From Mucilaginibacter sp. (GTDB lineage: Bacteria > Bacteroidota > Bacteroidia > Sphingobacteriales > Sphingobacteriaceae): 64,000 bases of DNA. Numbering within the stretch: the first letter of the stretch is position 1; the number at the start of each line of letters is the position of its first letter. The stretch is taken from the NCBI RefSeq assembly GCF_025362475.1, contig NZ_JANYGH010000024.1, positions 2,164 to 66,163 of the forward strand. Direction: 5' to 3'. The notes beneath the pieces were generated by a model. The model was not told the origin of the DNA. It worked only from the letters and a program-made list of their open reading frames with translations, and did not search any database. The position numbers and the translations under genes are program-made. Below, piece by piece: positions 9,990 through 44,584 of this stretch.

Positions 9990-10023
9990 TCTTCAAACTT
10001 TCAAATTCTCAAACCTTCAAATT
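9990..10023 (+). repeat. Tandem octamer repeat (YYTTCAAA-like x4)
   Basis: TCTTCAAA CTTTCAAA TTCTCAAA CCTTCAAA; single arm. Confidence 0.5.
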
Positions 10024-10118
10024 AACTTCCATCAACTAAATCATTTTTTTCTTGTATAAGTAAAAATTTATGCGATAATTTGCACCCAAATTAAAAACAC
10101 AGTAATACAATCGAAAAA

Positions 10119-10244
10119 ATGAATCAACCAAGCTTAAATAAGCCCGCAATAAGAGCAACATTTGCTCCGGTTGCCGCTGCTTTGGGTTCAACTGTTTTTT
10201 TATGCTGCCCTCCCCGACGAAGGCCCTATATGCCACGGGTTTGA
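10119..10244 (+). CDS. Putative arginine-responsive leader peptide (41 aa)
   Basis: MNQPSLNKPAIRATFAPVAAALGSTVFLCCPPRRRPYMPRV; CGA CGA AGG run plus CGG, 115 nt before the arg operon; below ORF-track cutoff. Confidence 0.6.
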   Translation: MNQPSLNKPAIRATFAPVAAALGSTVFLCCPPRRRPYMPRV

Positions 10245-10359
10245 ATTAATTTCTCGCACTAAGCCCTCACAAAAGAGTTATTAAACTTCTTTTAAGAAAA
10301 GCCATCTAATTATTAAGGCCTTTAAAAGCCAATTAATTTAACGGTAATCATCTATTTAA

Positions 10360-11001
10360 ATGACCATACAAGATTTTGATATTCAGGTTGCTACAGCACA
10401 GCATGTAGATTTTGCCCCAATGATATGTGATGAAATGGCCGAATCGGCCAAAGCGCGCGGAACGGGTATTGCACAACGTTCACCAGAATATGTTGCCAAT
10501 AAAATGCTGGAAGGCAAAGCAGTTATTGCCTTACATAAAGACGGTACCTGGGCCGGTTTCTGTTATATAGAAACCTGGAGCCATGGCGACTTTGTGGCCA
10601 ATTCCGGTCTTATTGTAAACCCGCAGTTTCGTAAAGTAGGTTTGGCGAAAGCCATTAAACATGCCATTTTCCAGCTTTCACGCAAAAAATATCCCAACGC
10701 TAAAATATTTGGATTGACCACAGGTTTGGCGGTAATGCGTATCAACTCAGAAATTGGGTATGAACCTGTTACCTATTCTGAACTTACCCAGGATGAAAAT
10801 TTTTGGGCCGGCTGCAAAAGCTGCGTTAACTACGATATCCTGATGAGCAAAGATCGTAAGAATTGCATGTGCACCGCCATGCTGTTTGATCCCGCCGAAA
10901 AACAAAAACAGGACGAGGAGAAAATGAAAAGAATTACGCACAAAGCTACCTTGCTTGAGCGAATTGAAAATGCCATTAAAAAGCGGATGGGGCAAGATTA
11001 G
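10360..11001 (+). CDS. argA: GNAT-type N-acylglutamate synthase (short ArgA)
   Basis: ARGTGIAQRSPEY, GFCYIETW, FWAGCKSCVNYDIL, CMCTAML; first gene of the arg operon. Confidence 0.75.
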   Translation: MTIQDFDIQVATAQHVDFAPMICDEMAESAKARGTGIAQRSPEYVANKMLEGKAVIALHKDGTWAGFCYIETWSHGDFVANSGLIVNPQFRKVGLAKAIKHAIFQLSRKKYPNAKIFGLTTGLAVMRINSEIGYEPVTYSELTQDENFWAGCKSCVNYDILMSKDRKNCMCTAMLFDPAEKQKQDEEKMKRITHKATLLERIENAIKKRMGQD

Positions 11002-11102
11002 GTGAAAGGGCGATAAGCCAGGTTGATAAATAAACTAATAAAAAGCACATACAAATTGAAAACATAAAAAGCTTTAAGCCTTTCGCTTTTAGCTTTAAGC
11101 CC
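11001..11102. repeat. Heptamer-armed junction element (no cargo)
   Basis: Right arm GCTTTAA GCCTTTC GCTTTTA GCTTTAA GCC just before argG ATG; degenerate left arm GGTGAAAGGGCGATAAGC at the argA stop. Confidence 0.6.
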
Positions 11103-11109
11103 ACAAAAA

Positions 11110-12306
11110 ATGAAAAAGAAAGTAGTATTAGCATACAGCGGCGGATTAGACACCTCATTTTGCTGTATATATTTAACACAGGACCTTGGTTACGAAGTTC
11201 ACTCGGTAATTGTTAACACGGGCGGCTTTAGCGACGAAGAGTTAAAAGGGGTTGAAGAACGCGCTTACCAAATGGGCGTTACATCGCACCACGTAGTAGA
11301 TGAAACTACTAATTTTTACAATACCTGTGTTCGTTTTTTGATTTATGGCAATGTTTTAAAGAACAACACTTACCCACTTTCTGTAAGTGCCGAGCGTGTG
11401 AGCCAGGCAACCGCAATTGCCAACTACGCAAAAGAAATTGGTGCTGAATTTGTAGCACACGGCAGTACCGGCGCCGGTAACGACCAGGTGCGTTTTGATA
11501 TGATCTTTAATATCCTGGTTCCGGAAGTAAAGATCATCACCCCTATCCGCGACTTGAAATTAAGCCGCGAAGCGGAGATCCAATACCTGAAAGATCATGG
11601 TGTGGAGATGAACTTCGAAAAAGCAAAATACTCTATCAATAAAGGAATCTGGGGTACGTCAGTTGGTGGTAAAGAAACGCTTACTTCAAACTTAGGTTTA
11701 CCGGAAGAAGCATGGCCTACACAAGTTACCGAATCGGAAGTTAAAAACCTGGAATTGGTGTTTGAAAAAGGCGAGCTGGTTGGCATTGATAATGAAAAAT
11801 ATGATCATCCAACCAAGGCAATCCAGGCATTACAGGCTATTGCGCAGCCTTATGGTATTGGTCGTGATATTCATGTTGGCGATACTATTATAGGCATTAA
11901 AGGCAGGGTTGGTTTTGAGGCAGCCGCGCCGATGCTTATTATCAAAGCCCATCATACTTTAGAGAAACATGTGCTTACCAAATGGCAGCTTTCATGGAAA
12001 GACCAGCTATCTGCATTTTATGGCAACTGGTTGCATGAAGGTCAGTTTCATGACCCAATTATGCGCAACATAGAAGCATTCCTGAGCGATACTCAGCTAA
12101 ATGTAACTGGCAAAGTGTTTGTACAATTGCACCCTTATCGCTTTCAGGTAATCGGTATTGAGTCTACTCATGACCTGATGTCGAATAAATTTGGCAGCTA
12201 TGGCGAAATGAACAATTCATGGTCTGGTGAAGATGTTAAAGGTTTCTCTAAAATATTTGGCAACCAGGTGATGATCTATCACAAGGTTAATCAAGATGCG
12301 AAATGA
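11110..12306 (+). CDS. argG: Argininosuccinate synthase
   Basis: VLAYSGGLDTS, AHGSTGAGNDQVRF, KGRVGFEA. Confidence 0.97.
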   Translation: MKKKVVLAYSGGLDTSFCCIYLTQDLGYEVHSVIVNTGGFSDEELKGVEERAYQMGVTSHHVVDETTNFYNTCVRFLIYGNVLKNNTYPLSVSAERVSQATAIANYAKEIGAEFVAHGSTGAGNDQVRFDMIFNILVPEVKIITPIRDLKLSREAEIQYLKDHGVEMNFEKAKYSINKGIWGTSVGGKETLTSNLGLPEEAWPTQVTESEVKNLELVFEKGELVGIDNEKYDHPTKAIQALQAIAQPYGIGRDIHVGDTIIGIKGRVGFEAAAPMLIIKAHHTLEKHVLTKWQLSWKDQLSAFYGNWLHEGQFHDPIMRNIEAFLSDTQLNVTGKVFVQLHPYRFQVIGIESTHDLMSNKFGSYGEMNNSWSGEDVKGFSKIFGNQVMIYHKVNQDAK

Positions 12307-12656
12307 TAAACACCATCTTTTCAAAAGGCGAATGTTTAAAGCATTATAAATGGGGCGACGACTGCTACGGGTGGACATTTATTGATACCGAAGAGCTATC
12401 TGTAAAACAGGAGTTGATGCCGCCTGATACTGCCGAGCAATTGCACTACCATGAAAAGGCTAAGCAGGTATTTTTCATTTTAAAGGGACGAGCGACGCTC
12501 CATATCAACGGGGAAACAACCGTTTTAAAGCCAGAGCAAGGCATCGAAATATTACCGGGTCAAAAACACTTCATCAGTAATAACGACAGAAGTGACCTGG
12601 AATTTATTCTATATTCTTATCCATCAACAAATAATGACAGGATCAACATTAAATAA
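12303..12656 (+). CDS. Cupin-domain protein
   Basis: EQLHYHEKAKQVFFILKG ... GQKHFISN; overlaps argG stop (ATGA) and argC start. Confidence 0.85.
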   Translation: MINTIFSKGECLKHYKWGDDCYGWTFIDTEELSVKQELMPPDTAEQLHYHEKAKQVFFILKGRATLHINGETTVLKPEQGIEILPGQKHFISNNDRSDLEFILYSYPSTNNDRINIK

Positions 12657-13632
12657 AGTACGGGCAGGTATCATTGGCGGGGCAGGTTATACTGGTGGCG
12701 AAATGCTGCGCATTCTTATCAACCATCCCAATGTAGATATTGCTTTTATTCATAGTAACAGCAATGCAGGCAATTACGTTTACGAGGTACATACCGATCT
12801 TTTTGGTGATACCGACTTAAAATTCGCGGCTGAGTTTTTTACCGATGTTGATGTGCTTTTTCTTTGCGTTGGTCATGGTGATGCTAAAAAGTTTTTAGAA
12901 GCGAATGACATCCCCGATGCAGTTAAGATCATTGACTTAAGCCAGGACTTTAGGTTAAGTCAAAATTCAAAATTTAAAACTAAAAACTTTGTATATGGCT
13001 TGCCCGAATTAAATCGGGAGGCGATTAAAACAGCTGATAACATTGCCAATCCGGGTTGTTTTGCTACCTGCTTACAATTAGGATTGCTTCCTTTAGCATC
13101 TAAAGGATTGCTGAATAACGAAGTTCATATCACAGCAACAACGGGCTCAACTGGTGCCGGCCAAAGTTTGGCCGCTACCTCGCATTTTACATGGAGAAAC
13201 GATAACCTTTCTGTTTACAAGGCCTTTAGTCACCAGCATTTAAATGAGATTGGGCAGTCATTAAAACAATTACAACCTGATTTTGGTAAAGCGATTAATT
13301 TTATTCCATATCGGGGCGATTTTACCCGTGGAATCATAGCTTCCATGTATACAGAAAGTGATTTGAGCGAAGAAGAAGCTTTATCACTTTACCAGGGTTA
13401 TTACGACGGGCATCCATTTACACATGTTACTAACCGCAATATTGATTTAAAGCAAATTGTAAATACCAATAAATGCTTTATTCAAGTTAAAAAACACGAT
13501 AATAAAATATTTATTATCAGCATAATGGACAACTTACTTAAAGGCGCTTCGGGCCAGGCTGTACAGAACATGAATTTATTGTTCGGTTTGGACGAGCGCA
13601 CAGGACTACGACTTAAGGCGACCGCTTTTTAG
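12634..13632 (+). CDS. argC: N-acyl-gamma-glutamyl-phosphate reductase
   Basis: GGAGYTGGE, IANPGCFAT, DNLLKGASGQAVQNMN; start uncertain. Confidence 0.95.
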   Translation: MTGSTLNKVRAGIIGGAGYTGGEMLRILINHPNVDIAFIHSNSNAGNYVYEVHTDLFGDTDLKFAAEFFTDVDVLFLCVGHGDAKKFLEANDIPDAVKIIDLSQDFRLSQNSKFKTKNFVYGLPELNREAIKTADNIANPGCFATCLQLGLLPLASKGLLNNEVHITATTGSTGAGQSLAATSHFTWRNDNLSVYKAFSHQHLNEIGQSLKQLQPDFGKAINFIPYRGDFTRGIIASMYTESDLSEEEALSLYQGYYDGHPFTHVTNRNIDLKQIVNTNKCFIQVKKHDNKIFIISIMDNLLKGASGQAVQNMNLLFGLDERTGLRLKATAF

Positions 13633-13662
13633 CTAAAAGCCGAAGGCTGAAAGCAAAAAGCT
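13631..13662 (+). repeat. Left heptamer arm of four-helix-bundle cassette
   Basis: AGCTAAA AGCCGAA GGCTGAA AGCAAAA AGCT, starting in the argC stop codon. Confidence 0.75.
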
Positions 13663-13681
13663 GTTGCCCTGAAAAATAACT

Positions 13682-14038
13682 ATGAGGGATTACAAAAAGT
13701 ATGAAGTATGGAAAAAAGCACATGAACTTAATATGTTCATTTACCTAACAGTACTTCCAAAATTCCCTAAAAGTGAACAATATGATTTAATGAGTCAAAC
13801 AAAACGAGCTTCGTATTCAATTCCCTTAAATATAGTTGAAGGGTGCGGAAGAAATACAGAGCGTGATTTTGCTCATTTTTTAGATCAGTCGTTAGGTTCG
13901 GCACATGAACTTGAATATTGCTGTTTAATGTGCAAAGATCTCTCGTACATCACTGAAGATTTGTTTCAGCAAACAAATAAGTCAATAAACGAAGTTAAGG
14001 CAATGCTGATAGGCCTGATTAAAATACTTAGAAAATAA
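13682..14038 (+). CDS. Four helix bundle protein (23S rRNA IVS protein / TIGR02436-like)
   Basis: VWKKAHEL, FPKSEQYDLMSQTKRASYSIPLNIVEGCGR, GSAHELE. Confidence 0.92.
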   Translation: MRDYKKYEVWKKAHELNMFIYLTVLPKFPKSEQYDLMSQTKRASYSIPLNIVEGCGRNTERDFAHFLDQSLGSAHELEYCCLMCKDLSYITEDLFQQTNKSINEVKAMLIGLIKILRK

Positions 14039-14039
14039 A

Positions 14040-14071
14040 GCTTTATGCCTTTGGCCTTTAGCTTTCAGCTT
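14040..14071 (+). repeat. Right heptamer arm of four-helix-bundle cassette
   Basis: GCTTTAT GCCTTTG GCCTTTA GCTTTCA GCTT, complementary to the left arm, ending 7 nt before argD ATG. Confidence 0.75.
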
Positions 14072-14078
14072 AAATGAT

Positions 14079-15206
14079 ATGAAACTATTTGACGTATATC
14101 CAATCAATCCAATAAATATAGTAAGAGGGCTGGGCAGCCTTGTTTATGATGCCCAGGATAATGAATATCTTGATATGTATGGCGGTCATGCCGTTATATC
14201 TATCGGCCATACCCATCCTCATTATGTAAAACGACTGGAAGATCAATTACATCAATTAGGGTTTTATTCAAACTCCATTGAGATCCCTATTCAAAAAGAG
14301 CTGGCGCAGAAACTGGGTAAGGTATCCGGTAAAGAAGATTACCAGTTATTTTTATGTAACTCAGGTGCAGAAGCTAATGAGAATGCTTTAAAACTGGCGT
14401 CTTTTTACAACGGCAAAAAGAAAGTTATCGCGTTTACAAAAGCCTTCCATGGCCGTACATCGTTAGCTGTGGCCGTTACAGACAATCCCAAGATTGTTGC
14501 GCCCATCAACCAAACCGACAACGTAATCTTTTTACCATGGGCCGATGAAGCCGCTTTAGCGCAGGCTTTTGCCGATAACGAAATTTCGTCTGTAATTATC
14601 GAAGGTATCCAGGGCGTTGGTGGTATCCAGGTAGCCCCTGAAAGCTTCCTGCAAAAGATCCGTTCGCTTTGTGACGAATGTAATGCTGTTTTTATTGCCG
14701 ACTCTGTGCAATGCGGTTACGGGCGTACCGGTAAATTCTTTTCCCAGGATTTTGCAGGTATTGATGCTGATATTTACAGTATGGCAAAGGGAATGGGTAA
14801 TGGCTTTCCGGTTGGTGGTATCATTATTTCGCCAAAAATACAACCTGCTTATGGCATGTTGGGCACCACTTTTGGTGGCAACCATTTGGCTTGTGCAGCT
14901 GGTTTAGCGGTGCTTGAGGTAATGGAGCAGGATAACCTGATGCAAAATGCTGCAACCGTTGGCGAATACCTGATAAAAGAGCTTAAAAAGCTGGAACAAG
15001 TTAAGGAAGTTAGGGGTCGTGGTTTGATGATAGGTATTGAATTGCCGGAAGAATTGGCGCATGCACGTAAAGAACTCTTATTTAAACATCATATTTTTAC
15101 CGGTGAGGCCAAGCCAAATGTGGTAAGATTACTGCCGGCACTTAACCTGACTAAAGCACATGCCGATAGGTTCCTGGAAGCATTTGTAAATGTTTTAAAT
15201 CAATAA
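14079..15206 (+). CDS. argD: Acetyl/succinylornithine aminotransferase
   Basis: NSGAEANENALK, AFHGRT, DSVQCGYGRTG, SMAKGMGNGFP, GTTFGGN. Confidence 0.93.
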   Translation: MKLFDVYPINPINIVRGLGSLVYDAQDNEYLDMYGGHAVISIGHTHPHYVKRLEDQLHQLGFYSNSIEIPIQKELAQKLGKVSGKEDYQLFLCNSGAEANENALKLASFYNGKKKVIAFTKAFHGRTSLAVAVTDNPKIVAPINQTDNVIFLPWADEAALAQAFADNEISSVIIEGIQGVGGIQVAPESFLQKIRSLCDECNAVFIADSVQCGYGRTGKFFSQDFAGIDADIYSMAKGMGNGFPVGGIIISPKIQPAYGMLGTTFGGNHLACAAGLAVLEVMEQDNLMQNAATVGEYLIKELKKLEQVKEVRGRGLMIGIELPEELAHARKELLFKHHIFTGEAKPNVVRLLPALNLTKAHADRFLEAFVNVLNQ

Positions 15207-15284
15207 GCTCTTTCTAAATCATCCCCTGTTGGCGGCGACTTTTAAATAAATATTAATTTGCTAAATCATTATTAAATAAGGCTC

Positions 15285-16232
15285 ATGAAATTATTTTCTT
15301 CTGTAAATGATGTTACTGATATCAACGCACTTGTAAAAGAGGCGTTGGCTCTTAAACAGAATCCTTATGCTCATCAGCAATTGGGTAAAAATAAAACACT
15401 GGCTTTAGTGTTTTTAAACCCAAGTTTGCGTACACGTATGAGTACTCAAAAAGCAGCGCTTAATTTGGGTATGAATGTGATGGTGCTTAATATAGATAAG
15501 GAAGGCTGGGCATTAGAGCTACGCGACGGCGTGATCATGGACGGATCAACAGTAGAGCATATCCGTGAAGCAGCCGGTGTTATGGGGCAGTATGCAGACA
15601 TTATAGGCGTGCGTTCATTCCCCGGCCTGCGCAACCGCGAGGAAGATTACAGCGAAATGATTTTTAATAAGTTTGTGGAGTTTTGCAAAGTGCCCGTGGT
15701 GAGCCTGGAATCGGCCACCCGCCACCCCTTGCAAAGCTTGGCAGATTTAGTCACCATAACAGAATTAAAAACTACTGAGCGCCCTAAGGTTGTATTAACC
15801 TGGGCGCCTCATATAAAACCATTGCCACAGGCTGTTCCTAATTCATTTGCTGAGTGGATGTGTAAAGCCGATGTTGATTTTACTATAGTTCAACCTAAAG
15901 GATATGAGCTTTGTGCCGATTTTACACAAGGTGCCAAAATAACCTATGATCAGGACGAAGCTTTAGCTGGCGCTGATTTTATCTATGTCAAAAACTGGTC
16001 GGCATATGAGCCTTACGGTAATATACTGGGTAAAAATGAAGAGTGGATGCTAACTACCGAAAAGCTGAAGGCAACCAATGATGCCAAAGTAATGCATTGC
16101 CTGCCTGTACGCCGTAACTTGGAGCTATCAGATGAAATATTAGATGGCCCAAATTCCATTGTTGTACATGAAGCCGGAAACCGCGTTTGGGCTGCACAAG
16201 CTGTGTTAAAGCAGATGTTGGAAAGTTTGTAA
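15285..16232 (+). CDS. argF: N-succinyl/N-acetylornithine carbamoyltransferase (ArgF')
   Basis: FLNPSLRTR, GSTVEHIREAAGVMGQYADIIGVRSF, HPLQSLAD, MHCLPVRRN. Confidence 0.92.
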   Translation: MKLFSSVNDVTDINALVKEALALKQNPYAHQQLGKNKTLALVFLNPSLRTRMSTQKAALNLGMNVMVLNIDKEGWALELRDGVIMDGSTVEHIREAAGVMGQYADIIGVRSFPGLRNREEDYSEMIFNKFVEFCKVPVVSLESATRHPLQSLADLVTITELKTTERPKVVLTWAPHIKPLPQAVPNSFAEWMCKADVDFTIVQPKGYELCADFTQGAKITYDQDEALAGADFIYVKNWSAYEPYGNILGKNEEWMLTTEKLKATNDAKVMHCLPVRRNLELSDEILDGPNSIVVHEAGNRVWAAQAVLKQMLESL

Positions 16233-16249
16233 TATCCTGTGCTGATTTT

Positions 16250-16618
16250 ATGAGTAAAGTTTATGATATCTTACTTGACAATATTAAAATCGGCACAACT
16301 GTATTTGAAAATGCGGATCCAACTATGGGAGTCGTTTTTGGTAGGATTAACTTTTTAAATATTGGATATGACTTTAATTTTTTTAGAGCGTATTGCTTAT
16401 TAAATGGCGTTGATTTTCAGAAATACATTGAAGATAAACTGATAACAACCAGTACAATTCCCGGTTTACGTGTATATAACCGAAGCGGGGATGAGGTTAA
16501 AGGAGATGCCTGTTCAATATCAGGGATGGACGGCGATTTTTTTGATGTAACTATCTCAGGAATACCATACCCGTTTTACGAAGAAGAGTTTCCTCAACAT
16601 CCCAAAGCAAAAGAGTAA
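16250..16618 (+). CDS. Hypothetical protein
   Basis: ATG at 16250 (MSKVYDILL...); no recognised motif. Confidence 0.65.
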   Translation: MSKVYDILLDNIKIGTTVFENADPTMGVVFGRINFLNIGYDFNFFRAYCLLNGVDFQKYIEDKLITTSTIPGLRVYNRSGDEVKGDACSISGMDGDFFDVTISGIPYPFYEEEFPQHPKAKE

Positions 16619-16663
16619 ATTTAAGGATTGGCATTTTGTAAATCCTAAAATCAACTTCATAAA

Positions 16664-17272
16664 ATGTATATTCCGTCTTTCAATAAATTCCCCAACCAGC
16701 AGGAAGCCATCAGCTTTATGCAACGGTACAGTTTTGCAGCCATAGTTACGGCAGAAGATGATGTGCCGGTAGCCTCACACCTCCCCTTTTTGGTTGAGCT
16801 TCGTGAAGATAAAATAGTTTTGCTCTCGCATTTTGCAAAAGCAAATCCCCAGGCTGGTCAAATTGTAGGTAAATCTATTTTGGTAATATTTACCGAGCCT
16901 CACGCCTATATATCACCCACAAATTACGAGAAAGAAACCAATGTACCTACCTGGAATTATTTAGCAGTACACGCCTATGGTAAAGCAACACTGATACCAG
17001 AGGGTGAAGAAACAGCTACCCTGCTTGCCAAAATGATAAGCAACTACGAGCCGGGCTACCTTCAACAATGGAATAGTTTGCCTGATGAGTACAAACAAAA
17101 GATGATGAAAGGCATAGTAGCTTTTGAAATTGTTGTTGATGACCTGCAGGGCAAACAAAAGCTAAGTCAAAATCGCTCGGCGATAGAGAGAGATAATATC
17201 ATTAATTCTTTAGATAAAAGTCCAGACACTAATGAGAGCGAGATCGCTAAATATATGTCAAAATTAAAATAG
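16664..17272 (+). CDS. PaiB-like FMN-binding negative transcriptional regulator
   Basis: ASHLPF, HFAKANPQ, HAYISP..Y, VPTWNYLAVHAYG, KLSQNRS. Confidence 0.9.
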   Translation: MYIPSFNKFPNQQEAISFMQRYSFAAIVTAEDDVPVASHLPFLVELREDKIVLLSHFAKANPQAGQIVGKSILVIFTEPHAYISPTNYEKETNVPTWNYLAVHAYGKATLIPEGEETATLLAKMISNYEPGYLQQWNSLPDEYKQKMMKGIVAFEIVVDDLQGKQKLSQNRSAIERDNIINSLDKSPDTNESEIAKYMSKLK

Positions 17273-23274: not shown

Positions 23275-23280
23275 GGCGTT

Positions 23281-23563
23281 GAAAGGCAAAGGGTAAAAGG
23301 CGAAAGGTAAAAGGTTGTTTAACATAATGCCTTTCACCTTTCACCTTTCACCTTTCACCTTTCACCTTTCACCTTTCACCTTTCACCTTTCACCTTTTAC
23401 CTTTTACCTTTCACCTTTCTCCTTTCTCCTTTCTCCTTTCACCTTTCTCCTCTCACCTTTCTCCTTTCTCCTTTCTCCTTTCTCCTTTCTCCTCTCACTT
23501 TCTCCTTTCTCCTTTCACCTTTCTCCTTTCTCCTTTCACCTTTCTCCTCTCACCTTTCTCCTT
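23281..23563. repeat. Inverted heptamer arms; right arm expanded to 33 copies of CCTTTCW
   Basis: Left GAAAGGC AAAGGGT AAAAGGC GAAAGGT AAAAGG (23281-23314); right 23330-23563 CCTTTCA/CCTTTCT/CCTCTCA array. Confidence 0.92.
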
Positions 23564-37334: not shown

Positions 37335-37336
37335 AT

Positions 37337-37413
37337 GAGAGTCAAGAATTTAGAATCAAGAATCAAGACAGGAAATTGCAGCTTCTTGATTCTTGACTCT
37401 TGATTCTTATCTC
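37337..37413. repeat. Heptamer-armed hairpin at phoH|purC junction
   Basis: GAGTCAA GAATTTA GAATCAA GAATCAA GAC ... TCTTGAT TCTTGAC TCTTGAT TCTTATC; ends 2 nt from the purC ATG. Confidence 0.8.
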
Positions 37414-37435
37414 TTTATTTTATTGGATATCCCTT

Positions 37436-44403: not shown

Positions 44404-44408
44404 CTTGT

Positions 44409-44584
44409 TAGTTCATTGGTTCATTAGTTCATTGGTTCATTGGTATGTTGCGTTAAATATTTAACAACCTGATGAACGAACGGGGAACTAATAAACGATT
44501 TAGAGTTAATTTATTTAGTTTAATAGTTCACCGGCCTTATTCATCAAGTCCTAATGAACTAATGAACCAGTGAACTAATGAACG
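44409..44584. repeat. Octamer-armed inverted repeat at serC|serA junction
   Basis: (A/G)GTTCATT x4 near the serA start and AATGAAC(T/C)-type x4 at the serC stop, with degenerate nested units. Confidence 0.8.

Follow-up and report, generated by a model that had tools for sequence, protein, structure and literature searches.

A four-helix-bundle gene between heptamer arms in the argC-argD spacer

We analysed a 64,000-nt stretch of the Mucilaginibacter sp. assembly GCF_025362475.1 (contig NZ_JANYGH010000024.1, positions 2,164 to 66,163 of the forward strand), here called the window; coordinates without a contig or locus label refer to it. The genome assembly measures 6.45 Mb in 79 contigs, has 41% G+C and is 95% complete. 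An arginine operon occupies 10360-16232 on the plus strand in the order acetyltransferase, argG, cupin gene, argC, a small cassette, argD-type aminotransferase and carbamoyltransferase. The cassette is the subject of this work. It lies in the 446-nt argC-argD spacer and consists of a gene for a 118-aa four-helix-bundle protein between two complementary arrays of heptamers.

The upstream host gene is argC (N-acetyl-gamma-glutamyl-phosphate reductase, 12634..13632, plus strand; Pfam Semialdhyde_dh and Semialdhyde_dhC_1), as delimited in the list of open reading frames (ORFs). Its stop codon TAG (13630-13632) falls inside the left arm (13627..13662, plus strand), which was found by repeat search and in the sequence itself and is made of about 4.5 AAAGCNN-type heptamers whose sense strand is rich in purines. 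The four-helix-bundle gene (13682..14038, plus strand; PF05635 and TIGR02436 by profile match) runs in the direction of the operon and is the sole ORF between the arms. Directly after its stop the repeat search places the right arm (14039..14074, plus strand) with complementary NNGCTTT heptamers, and the end of that arm (14071-14074) is 4-7 nt upstream of the ATG (14079) of the downstream host gene, an argD-type class-III aminotransferase (14079..15206, plus strand; Pfam Aminotran_3, E=2.3e-98). The heptamers of one arm read GCTAAAA GCCGAAG GCTGAAA GCAAAAA with their complement in the opposite arm, and the inverted repeat as a whole has arms of 36 nt that are 78% complementary and 376 nt apart. 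Repeats reaching its score (16) occur just 7 times in a shuffled copy of the 6.45-Mb genome. The calculated arm-arm RNA duplex has an energy of -35.3 kcal/mol, compared with -12.2 +/- 3.6 kcal/mol when the right arm is shuffled. The left-arm unit type recurs in the orthologous cassettes of three relatives (G018, G009 and G011).

An earlier note on this DNA had described arms that run from the argC stop to just before the argD ATG around a single 118-aa ORF, and had read them as a discrete cassette set flush between co-transcribed genes. The coordinates, the ORF list, the complementarity and the stop-to-start placement of both arms bear this out: the argC-argD spacer is a self-contained cassette whose complementary arms are flush with the host stop and start. 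No target-site duplication is visible at its borders. A scan for sigma-70-type consensus sequences, which does not cover Bacteroidota promoters, found no promoter-like site of the cassette gene's own. A terminator scan did not flag the arms, which lack the intrinsic-terminator design of a compact G+C-rich stem followed by a T run. An Rfam scan gave no family match at the cassette and no rRNA match in 10000-17000. Beyond the carbamoyltransferase gene, an ORF of about 120-143 aa (16250-16618) has no Pfam match.

The cassette protein matches PF05635 with E=3.6e-34 and 117.6 bits (cut-off 33.8) and TIGR02436 with E=6.9e-31 and 106.7 bits (cut-off 24). A phmmer search against the PDB found 2GSC at E=1.5e-13, with 2RLD as the second solved relative. 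Both entries contain five chains, and together with Lin et al. (2006, as cited in PMC3936711) they suggest a pentamer of four-helix bundles. Pfam and NCBIfam scans of the protein returned four-helix-bundle families only and no recognisable catalytic domain. A PADLOC scan gave no defence-system match, and an RVT_1 search of the 95%-complete genome found no reverse transcriptase.

Inverted arms accompany the gene family in the genome and the genus

A profile search of the genome found seven PF05635 genes and one gene of the GxxExxY type, and all eight are flanked by inverted arms with flank scores of 13-31.5. A flank score of at least 12 is reached by 8/8 of these genes and by 13/729 other genome genes of 90-150 aa. 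The seven PF05635 paralogues are 25-44% identical to each other, and no two of them share an arm unit family (AAGGAGC..., TATCAAG, GGTTGCG, GCTGAAA, GTTCATTG, AAGAGTC and CAGTTTG). All seven are co-directional with housekeeping neighbours, at the junctions rplY|pth, ABC ATPase|methyltransferase, metH|metF, argC|argD, CBS protein|nadK, miaB|regulator and gmk|nadD. Every one of 25 sampled Mucilaginibacter species has PF05635 genes, with 2-12 per genome. Arms are present at 99 of the 107 best-scoring genes, with a best period of 7 in 71 and of 8 in 21. Internal stops are found in 11 of the 107. The earlier note had proposed looking for an association of this family with inverted heptamer arms, and it is found both in the genome and across the genus.

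Several further arrangements were seen in this genome and its relatives. The copy between miaB and a sigma-54-type regulator (contig C54:68445-68836) seems to be frameshifted near its 5' end, with the N-terminal 21 codons in another frame. On contig C17 (40278-40957) a cassette stands between two complete hairpins, and each side of the gene carries a copy of a loop segment of about 60 nt (ending ...tacgccacacaagtgcagctg); L031, L038 and G011 have comparable multi-arm layouts. Seven other small genes are enclosed in long inverted repeats that are not made of heptamers (C19:28942-29505, C49:45245-45843, C52:181809-182423, C57:89739-90358, C63:41665-42438, C13:32842-33510 and C73:5290-6031). With motifs judged by eye, they resemble two DUF559-like endonucleases, three GIY-YIG proteins and two IS200/RAYT-like genes. 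A single small gene inside a hairpin may be a broader design in this Mucilaginibacter genome.

Filled, hairpin-only and empty arginine junctions

Two junctions of the arginine operon were compared across the 25 species. At argC|argD, seven species have a cassette, three a gene-less hairpin with heptamer arms and one a lone right arm, and the spacer of the remaining 14 has no heptamers; several of these 14 spacers contain unrelated hairpin repeats. The filled and empty alleles that the earlier note had asked after are thus all present, together with hairpin-only and right-arm-only forms. The empty argC|argD spacers were considered as possible decayed left arms, to which they show weak resemblance only when aligned. 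At acetyltransferase|argG, a cassette is found in five species (G006, G007, G011, G019 and G024), one of them a pseudogene, while this genome and its relative G018 have a gene-less AAAGCNN hairpin. The relative G007 has cassettes at both junctions. The loops of the hairpin-only arginine-operon sites were compared with the cassette interiors and show no homology to them, and the idea that hairpin-only junctions are remnants of gene deletion was rejected on this ground.

Other inserts also occupy these places. The argC|argD junction of G005 (L114) has a 1433-nt insert with no four-helix-bundle match. Other hairpin repeats, among them the GTAGAGACGCGATA...TATCGCGTCTCTAC and GTCATGCTGAAC...GTTCGGGATGAC types, occur at acetyltransferase|argG and argC|argD of G001, G002, G004, G008, G013-G016, G020 and G021. 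Stop-start junctions seem to be general landing or tolerance sites.

Gene and arms are copied and lost as one block

Within the genus, three protein types account for the twelve arginine-operon copies, and each type has its own arm unit at whatever junction it occupies. Type A has AAAGCTN arms; three species have it at argC|argD and one at the other junction (75-90% identity). Type B has AAAGGTN arms and occurs four times at the acetyltransferase junction and twice at argC|argD (77-98% identity). Type C, with two occurrences, has AAAGTTN arms. Identity between the types is 45-62%. Heptamer arrays align in several registers, and a cross-complementarity matrix was used instead of base-pair covariation counts. 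Left and right arms of the same cassette score 18.0 in this matrix and arms of the same type taken from elsewhere 19.0, compared with 9.4 for arms of different types.

The same comparison was made genus-wide, where the mean score of own arms is 21.3. Sites were called here by blastn of flanks of about 490 nt, which is imperfect and over-merged one cluster. For pairs with protein identity of 70% or more, the cross-arm score is 17.3 at the same site and 16.5 at different sites (71 pairs). It is 12.6 and 8.5, respectively, at 55-70% identity, and falls to 5.9 and 5.4 below 40%. In a permutation test on different-site pairs that are at least 55% identical, the observed mean was reached in 0/1000 shuffles.

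Pedobacter has a further type with TAAGGNN arms; eight loci have it at argC|argD, twelve at argD|argF' and three at both junctions. In these double-cassette loci the two copies are 86-91% identical in protein, and one copy has stops in 2/3 loci. In P. borealis the cassettes at adjacent junctions of one operon are 88% identical in DNA, and the homology begins at the upstream stop, takes in both arms and ends 2-6 nt short of the downstream ATG, with no target-site duplication visible. The P. borealis pair is direct evidence of block duplication. Copying of gene and arms together between junctions is established by the Pedobacter doubles, by types A and B at two junctions and by the cross-arm scores; the gene is inherited, duplicated and lost together with its two arms, as a single block. 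At two Pedobacter loci (L060:1279-2496 and L058) the left arm of the cassette after argD codes the last residues of argD and its stop (tail ...KGVGHKA*), and the insert has therefore remodelled the C-terminus of a host protein.

Among type A copies dN/dS is 0.02-0.10 (about 0.05) at a dS of about 1-2, near synonymous saturation. On this codon evidence the cassette protein is under strong purifying selection and functional. The cassette lineage is also old; its age, the constraint on its protein and its confinement to the arginine operon are points that the earlier note did not have. The arms have kept their unit type and complementarity over the same divergence, and since synonymous sites are nearly saturated, the arms must be under constraint or undergo continual homogenisation. 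The decay of redundant duplicates is consistent with a function in trans.

Distribution and operon fidelity

The closest homologues number 79 (58-91% identical) and are spread over Mucilaginibacter, Pedobacter, Chitinophaga, Ferruginibacter and further genera in two classes, Sphingobacteriia and Chitinophagia. Arginine operons host at least 75/79 of them, all co-oriented with the operon: 30 at argC|argD, 32 after argD, 8 at argG|argC and 5 at acetyltransferase|argG. On the protein tree (123 columns, poorly resolved, with 40/81 inner branches open) the junction label changes at least 13 times, and several of these changes are forced by well-supported branches alone. Four occupied junctions and repeated label changes within arginine operons point to frequent moves to neighbouring junctions by a lineage that has almost never left the operon. 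No inverted copy was found among the arginine-clade cassettes with identifiable host genes (at least 75/79, plus the 12 of the genus), and an inverton was rejected. No close relatives of the cassette were found on plasmids or phages.

The other clades differ in how they keep to their sites. In 12 genomes the miaB clade is at a single site. The metH|metF clade keeps to its junction within the genus (5/6) and not across the class (1/22), and three other clades are found at 7-9 sites each within the genus. Operon fidelity as a general rule was rejected on these counts; other lineages of the genus have reached many unrelated sites.

Gene-less hairpins of the same unit families

A conservative genome-wide scan for inverted repeats gave 1571 matches, and 111 when the genome was shuffled. 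Clustering yielded at least 142 hairpins made of 7- or 8-nt units, in about a dozen recurrent unit families; this is a lower bound, as the scan missed 4/7 cassettes. The gene-less hairpins have arms of about 31 nt (median 27-31 nt, about four units) and a median loop of 64 nt. Among fully intergenic hairpins, 83 lie between co-directional, 27 between convergent and 12 between divergent genes; divergent spacers account for 26% of the intergenic length. In 64 of the 83 co-directional cases the hairpin starts no more than 20 nt from the upstream stop.

The hairpins have a polarity with respect to transcription that is specific to the unit family. The A-rich arm comes first in 29/32 hairpins of the AAGAGTC/AAGTATC family and in 8/8 of the AAAGGT/AAAGCT family; the T-rich arm comes first in 7/7 of the GTTCATTG family and 4/4 of the CAGTTTG family. 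The polarity of cassette arms is that of their unit family. The loops are mostly unique (18/101 are similar to another loop), and the hairpins are therefore not copies of one element resembling a miniature inverted-repeat transposable element (MITE), an explanation that was rejected.

Within the window, gene-less hairpins were located at four places. An AAAGCNN hairpin at the acetyltransferase|argG junction (11000..11102, plus strand) has a degenerate left arm and its right arm at 11066-11102. An AAAGGTN hairpin (23280..23563, plus strand) fills the space from a stop (23274) to a start (23619). Two more lie between co-directional minus-strand genes, one with AAGAATC/AAGAGTC units (37335..37415, minus strand) and one with GTTCATTG octamers (44408..44583, minus strand). 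In the AAAGGTN hairpin the right arm has grown to about 33 tandem heptamers (CCTTTCA/CCTTTCT, 23330-23563) and the other arm has about five, which indicates that the arrays are prone to slippage.

The earlier note had counted at least six cargo-less elements in the window and had supposed a family of full and non-autonomous copies. Three clear elements and the degenerate one were located and the count of six was not reached. As for the family of copies, the hairpins do have the unit families and the polarity of the cassettes. Their loops, however, are related neither to one another nor to the cassette interior, and AAAGC and AAAGG arrays are abundant in genomes without the matching gene type. 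The number of AAAGCNN arrays is 0-59 per genome and is high in several genomes without an arginine-operon type A gene, although other similarly armed paralogues are not excluded there. A type-specific dependence of AAAGCNN arrays on the type A gene is not seen in these array counts.

Pairing of the arms in RNA

Pairing selection on the transcript would favour mismatches of the G.U type on the sense strand. Such mismatches are not in excess over those of the A.C type in the cassettes (40 vs 70, in a phylogenetically non-independent set) or in the gene-less hairpins (68 vs 71). The minimum-energy fold of a 481-nt region around the cassette is made of local hairpins and leaves the long-range stem unused (z -2.1). 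One of the local structures (13617-13668) is a hairpin of -26 kcal/mol formed by the left arm with the last argC codons, which competes with the long-range stem. Excision of the RNA stem, for example by RNase III, as the earlier note had suggested, thus finds no support in the mismatch counts or in the fold.

Discussion

The nearest described objects are the ORF-bearing 23S rRNA intervening sequences (IVS) of Leptospira and of Coxiella burnetii (S23p IVS; Warrier et al., 2016, PMC4990558). Both they and the cassette carry a PF05635 gene in a loop, and the IVS length of about 430-450 nt is close to that of the spacer described here. In both, terminal inverted repeats can pair into a stem of about 28-36 bp that contains or adjoins tandem heptamers (GACAGAT for Coxiella), and the insertion lies in sense orientation within a transcribed unit. 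They differ in the host, which for the cassette is a junction of a protein-coding operon and for the IVS an rRNA helix (9, 25 or 45), the feature by which IVS are defined. The cassette protein is strongly conserved (dN/dS about 0.05), while in Coxiella the ORF is in decay and its product apparently not made (PMC4990558). RNase III excision was demonstrated for the Coxiella IVS (PMC4990558) and is conjectural for the cassette. Block duplication into neighbouring junctions and filled and empty alleles are seen for the cassette and distinguish it from the IVS.

In population structure the cassette resembles the REPIN-RAYT system (Bertels and Rainey, 2011, PMC3116915; bioRxiv 10.1101/2021.07.10.451892). 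There too a small, usually single-copy and vertically inherited gene stands between inverted copies of a hairpin repeat and persists for a long time in a lineage, the flanking repeat is also dispersed without the gene in intergenic regions, and different paralogues are paired with different repeat families. The cassette gene is not a Y1 (IS200-like) transposase by Pfam and NCBIfam, its repeats are tandem heptamer arrays with unrelated loops instead of conserved palindromes, and the size of the repeat population showed no dependence on the gene. This genome also has true RAYT-like genes, which come with palindromes of their own.

Dispersed heptamer arrays have been described in Xanthomonas (GGGAATC) and Nostoc (GGGGAYT) and read as G-quadruplex formers (Rehm et al., 2015, PMC4692102). 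They resemble the arrays found here in their 7-nt units, in having about four units and often convergent inverted pairs, and in lying between co-directional ORFs near stops and rarely between divergent genes; the arrays of Rehm et al. are transcribed. Cassette units differ in not being G-rich and in that they bracket, and co-vary with, a specific gene family. Searches of PMC4692102 for S23, inverted, hairpin and related terms found no link of the arrays to any gene family.

The accessory protein Avd of diversity-generating retroelements (DGRs) has a homologous four-helix-bundle fold and is a pentamer in solved structures; the cassette protein differs from it in scoring 26.6 bits with the Avd model NF033474 (cut-off 80). 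With no RVT_1 in the genome and an Avd match below cut-off, DGR membership was rejected; a DGR is unlikely on the reverse-transcriptase result, with no search made for a template and variable repeat pair. A MITE or insertion sequence (IS) element was rejected for want of a target-site duplication and a transposase and in view of the mostly unique loops, and an intrinsic terminator was rejected too, as the scan flags nothing and the arms are 376 nt apart.

Genes of the 23S_rRNA_IVP family have been reported inside cas operons, for example between cmr3 and cmr2, and were taken there to have a CRISPR-associated function (Zhang and Ye, 2013, PMC3936711). The likeness is that a member of this family separates two neighbouring genes of an operon to which it is unrelated; the passages of that report retrieved do not mention flanking repeats or mobility. 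This report probably describes the same phenomenon. A full-text literature search found no paper describing the cassette class, in which gene and repeats are copied, moved and lost together, and which is apparently undescribed in the searchable literature. The argC-argD element is real and non-random, and is an ordinary member of this apparently undescribed class; it is unusually informative because of its relatives.

With moderate confidence, we favour a self-contained cassette that spreads over short range at the DNA level, whose arms are corrected in DNA, whose hairpin makes the insert tolerable and whose protein works in trans. The cassette gene would probably be transcribed by read-through of the operon. 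Spread would be mostly short-range copying of DNA, either by template switching during replication or by gene conversion into a neighbouring junction, and the complementarity of the arms would be kept by correction in DNA and not by selection for RNA pairing on the sense strand. Short-range copying and arm correction in DNA are favoured because no encoded enzyme or reverse transcriptase was found, because G.U-type mismatches are not in excess, and because the hops of the arginine lineage span 1-3 kb. In the transcript, the hairpin may loop out the 450-nt insert and join the host stop and start, so that the insert is tolerated, and by analogy with the 23S rRNA IVS it may be cut by RNase III. 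The protein would act in trans, probably as a nucleic-acid-binding pentamer like its solved relatives.

Several observations weigh against this account. No movement was observed directly, and no mobilising enzyme, target-site duplication or intermediate was identified. Where one cassette type has been replaced by another with different arms at the same junction, arm homology cannot serve. The genus-wide site calls and the protein tree carry the limits given above. The family-specific polarity with respect to transcription (29/32, 8/8, 7/7 and 4/4), the stop-proximal placement (64/83) and the depletion between divergent genes are not predicted by a purely DNA-level model; they point to an RNA-level or transcription-coupled constraint. 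Polarity and stop-proximal placement are also what keeps RNase III excision a live rival.

In that rival the element would be the mRNA counterpart of a 23S IVS: RNase III would cut the stem of about 30 bp, release the four-helix-bundle mRNA and split the argC and argD messages, and the element would spread through an RNA intermediate. We give this a minor though appreciable probability. The gene family and the design of a stem plus heptamers are those of the Coxiella IVS that RNase III excises (PMC4990558), the arm-arm duplex is strong (-35.3 kcal/mol), every cassette is co-oriented with its host operon, hops stay within junctions of a single transcript, and the hairpins have a fixed polarity, lie in transcribed 3' regions and are depleted between divergent genes. 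Yet G.U-compatible mismatches on the sense strand show no excess, the minimum-energy fold prefers local hairpins with a z of only -2.1, there is no reverse transcriptase in the genome, and the strong conservation of the protein contrasts with the decay of the Coxiella ORF (PMC4990558). It is also conceivable, though we are doubtful, that the four-helix-bundle protein is a 'master gene' product that binds, maintains or mobilises hairpins of its own unit, as RAYT does for REPINs, with the gene-less hairpins as its non-autonomous copies. The pairing of each of the seven paralogues with a different unit family is in keeping with this, as most of these families recur as gene-less hairpins whose polarity equals that of the cassette arms; protein clade and arm unit co-vary across sites, arms of about four units (median 27-31 nt) can be set beside the five chains of the solved relatives, and redundant duplicates decay as they would with a function in trans. 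Physical linkage of gene and arms alone accounts for the co-variation, however, and the protein has no recognisable catalytic domain. With mostly unique loops (18/101 similar to another), the gene-less hairpins do not represent copies of a single element; AAAGGTN hairpins are numerous in this genome, which has no type B gene, and AAAGCNN arrays number 21-40 in genomes without the arginine-operon type A gene compared with 12-59 in those with it.

Two further explanations concern the locus itself. A domesticated operon gene, whose protein or hairpin regulates the arginine genes and which is not meaningfully mobile, would explain a lineage almost confined to arginine operons across two classes, always in the orientation of co-transcription and under strong purifying selection. 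We consider this clearly unlikely: 14 of the 25 species have no copy at the two arginine junctions examined, four junctions are occupied and duplicates and pseudogenes are present, sister paralogues of the same design sit in unrelated operons (rplY|pth, metH|metF, gmk|nadD and miaB|regulator), and other clades are found at 7-9 sites within the genus. Heptamer hairpins are frequent (at least 142 in the genome, mostly just past stop codons), and an ordinary small gene could in principle adjoin terminator-like hairpins by coincidence. This is very improbable given the association of arms with the family (8/8 vs 13/729 in the genome and 99/107 genus-wide); moreover, the arms are split around the gene with no compact hairpin beside it, they accompany the protein clade to new sites, and the terminator scan leaves them unflagged.

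To our knowledge, the ORFs within 23S rRNA intervening sequences have remained unexplained since 1993, and we know of no explanation for the excess of heptamer repeats in bacterial genomes. The arginine locus and its relatives connect these two observations outside rRNA. In a speculative extension that we think rather unlikely, PF05635 pentamers would read their own heptamer arrays, each subunit taking one 7-nt unit; pentamers and arrays would jointly be a genetic symbiont without a transposase that is found throughout bacteria and lives in transcribed stop-start junctions and rRNA helices, and each clade would be the vertically inherited 'master' by which one hairpin family is maintained or spread. 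If true, this would account for the 23S rRNA intervening sequences as well as for the surplus of 7-nt repeats in the genomes of bacteria. The filled, hairpin-only, one-arm and empty junctions, the recent duplicates and the decaying copies form a natural series for experiment in culturable soil bacteria. If the gene and its arms spread as a block without an encoded recombinase, this would be a mode of gene mobility that annotation pipelines miss wholly, and calls of 'operon-associated' members of the family, such as the cas association, would be artefacts of the places that tolerate a cassette.

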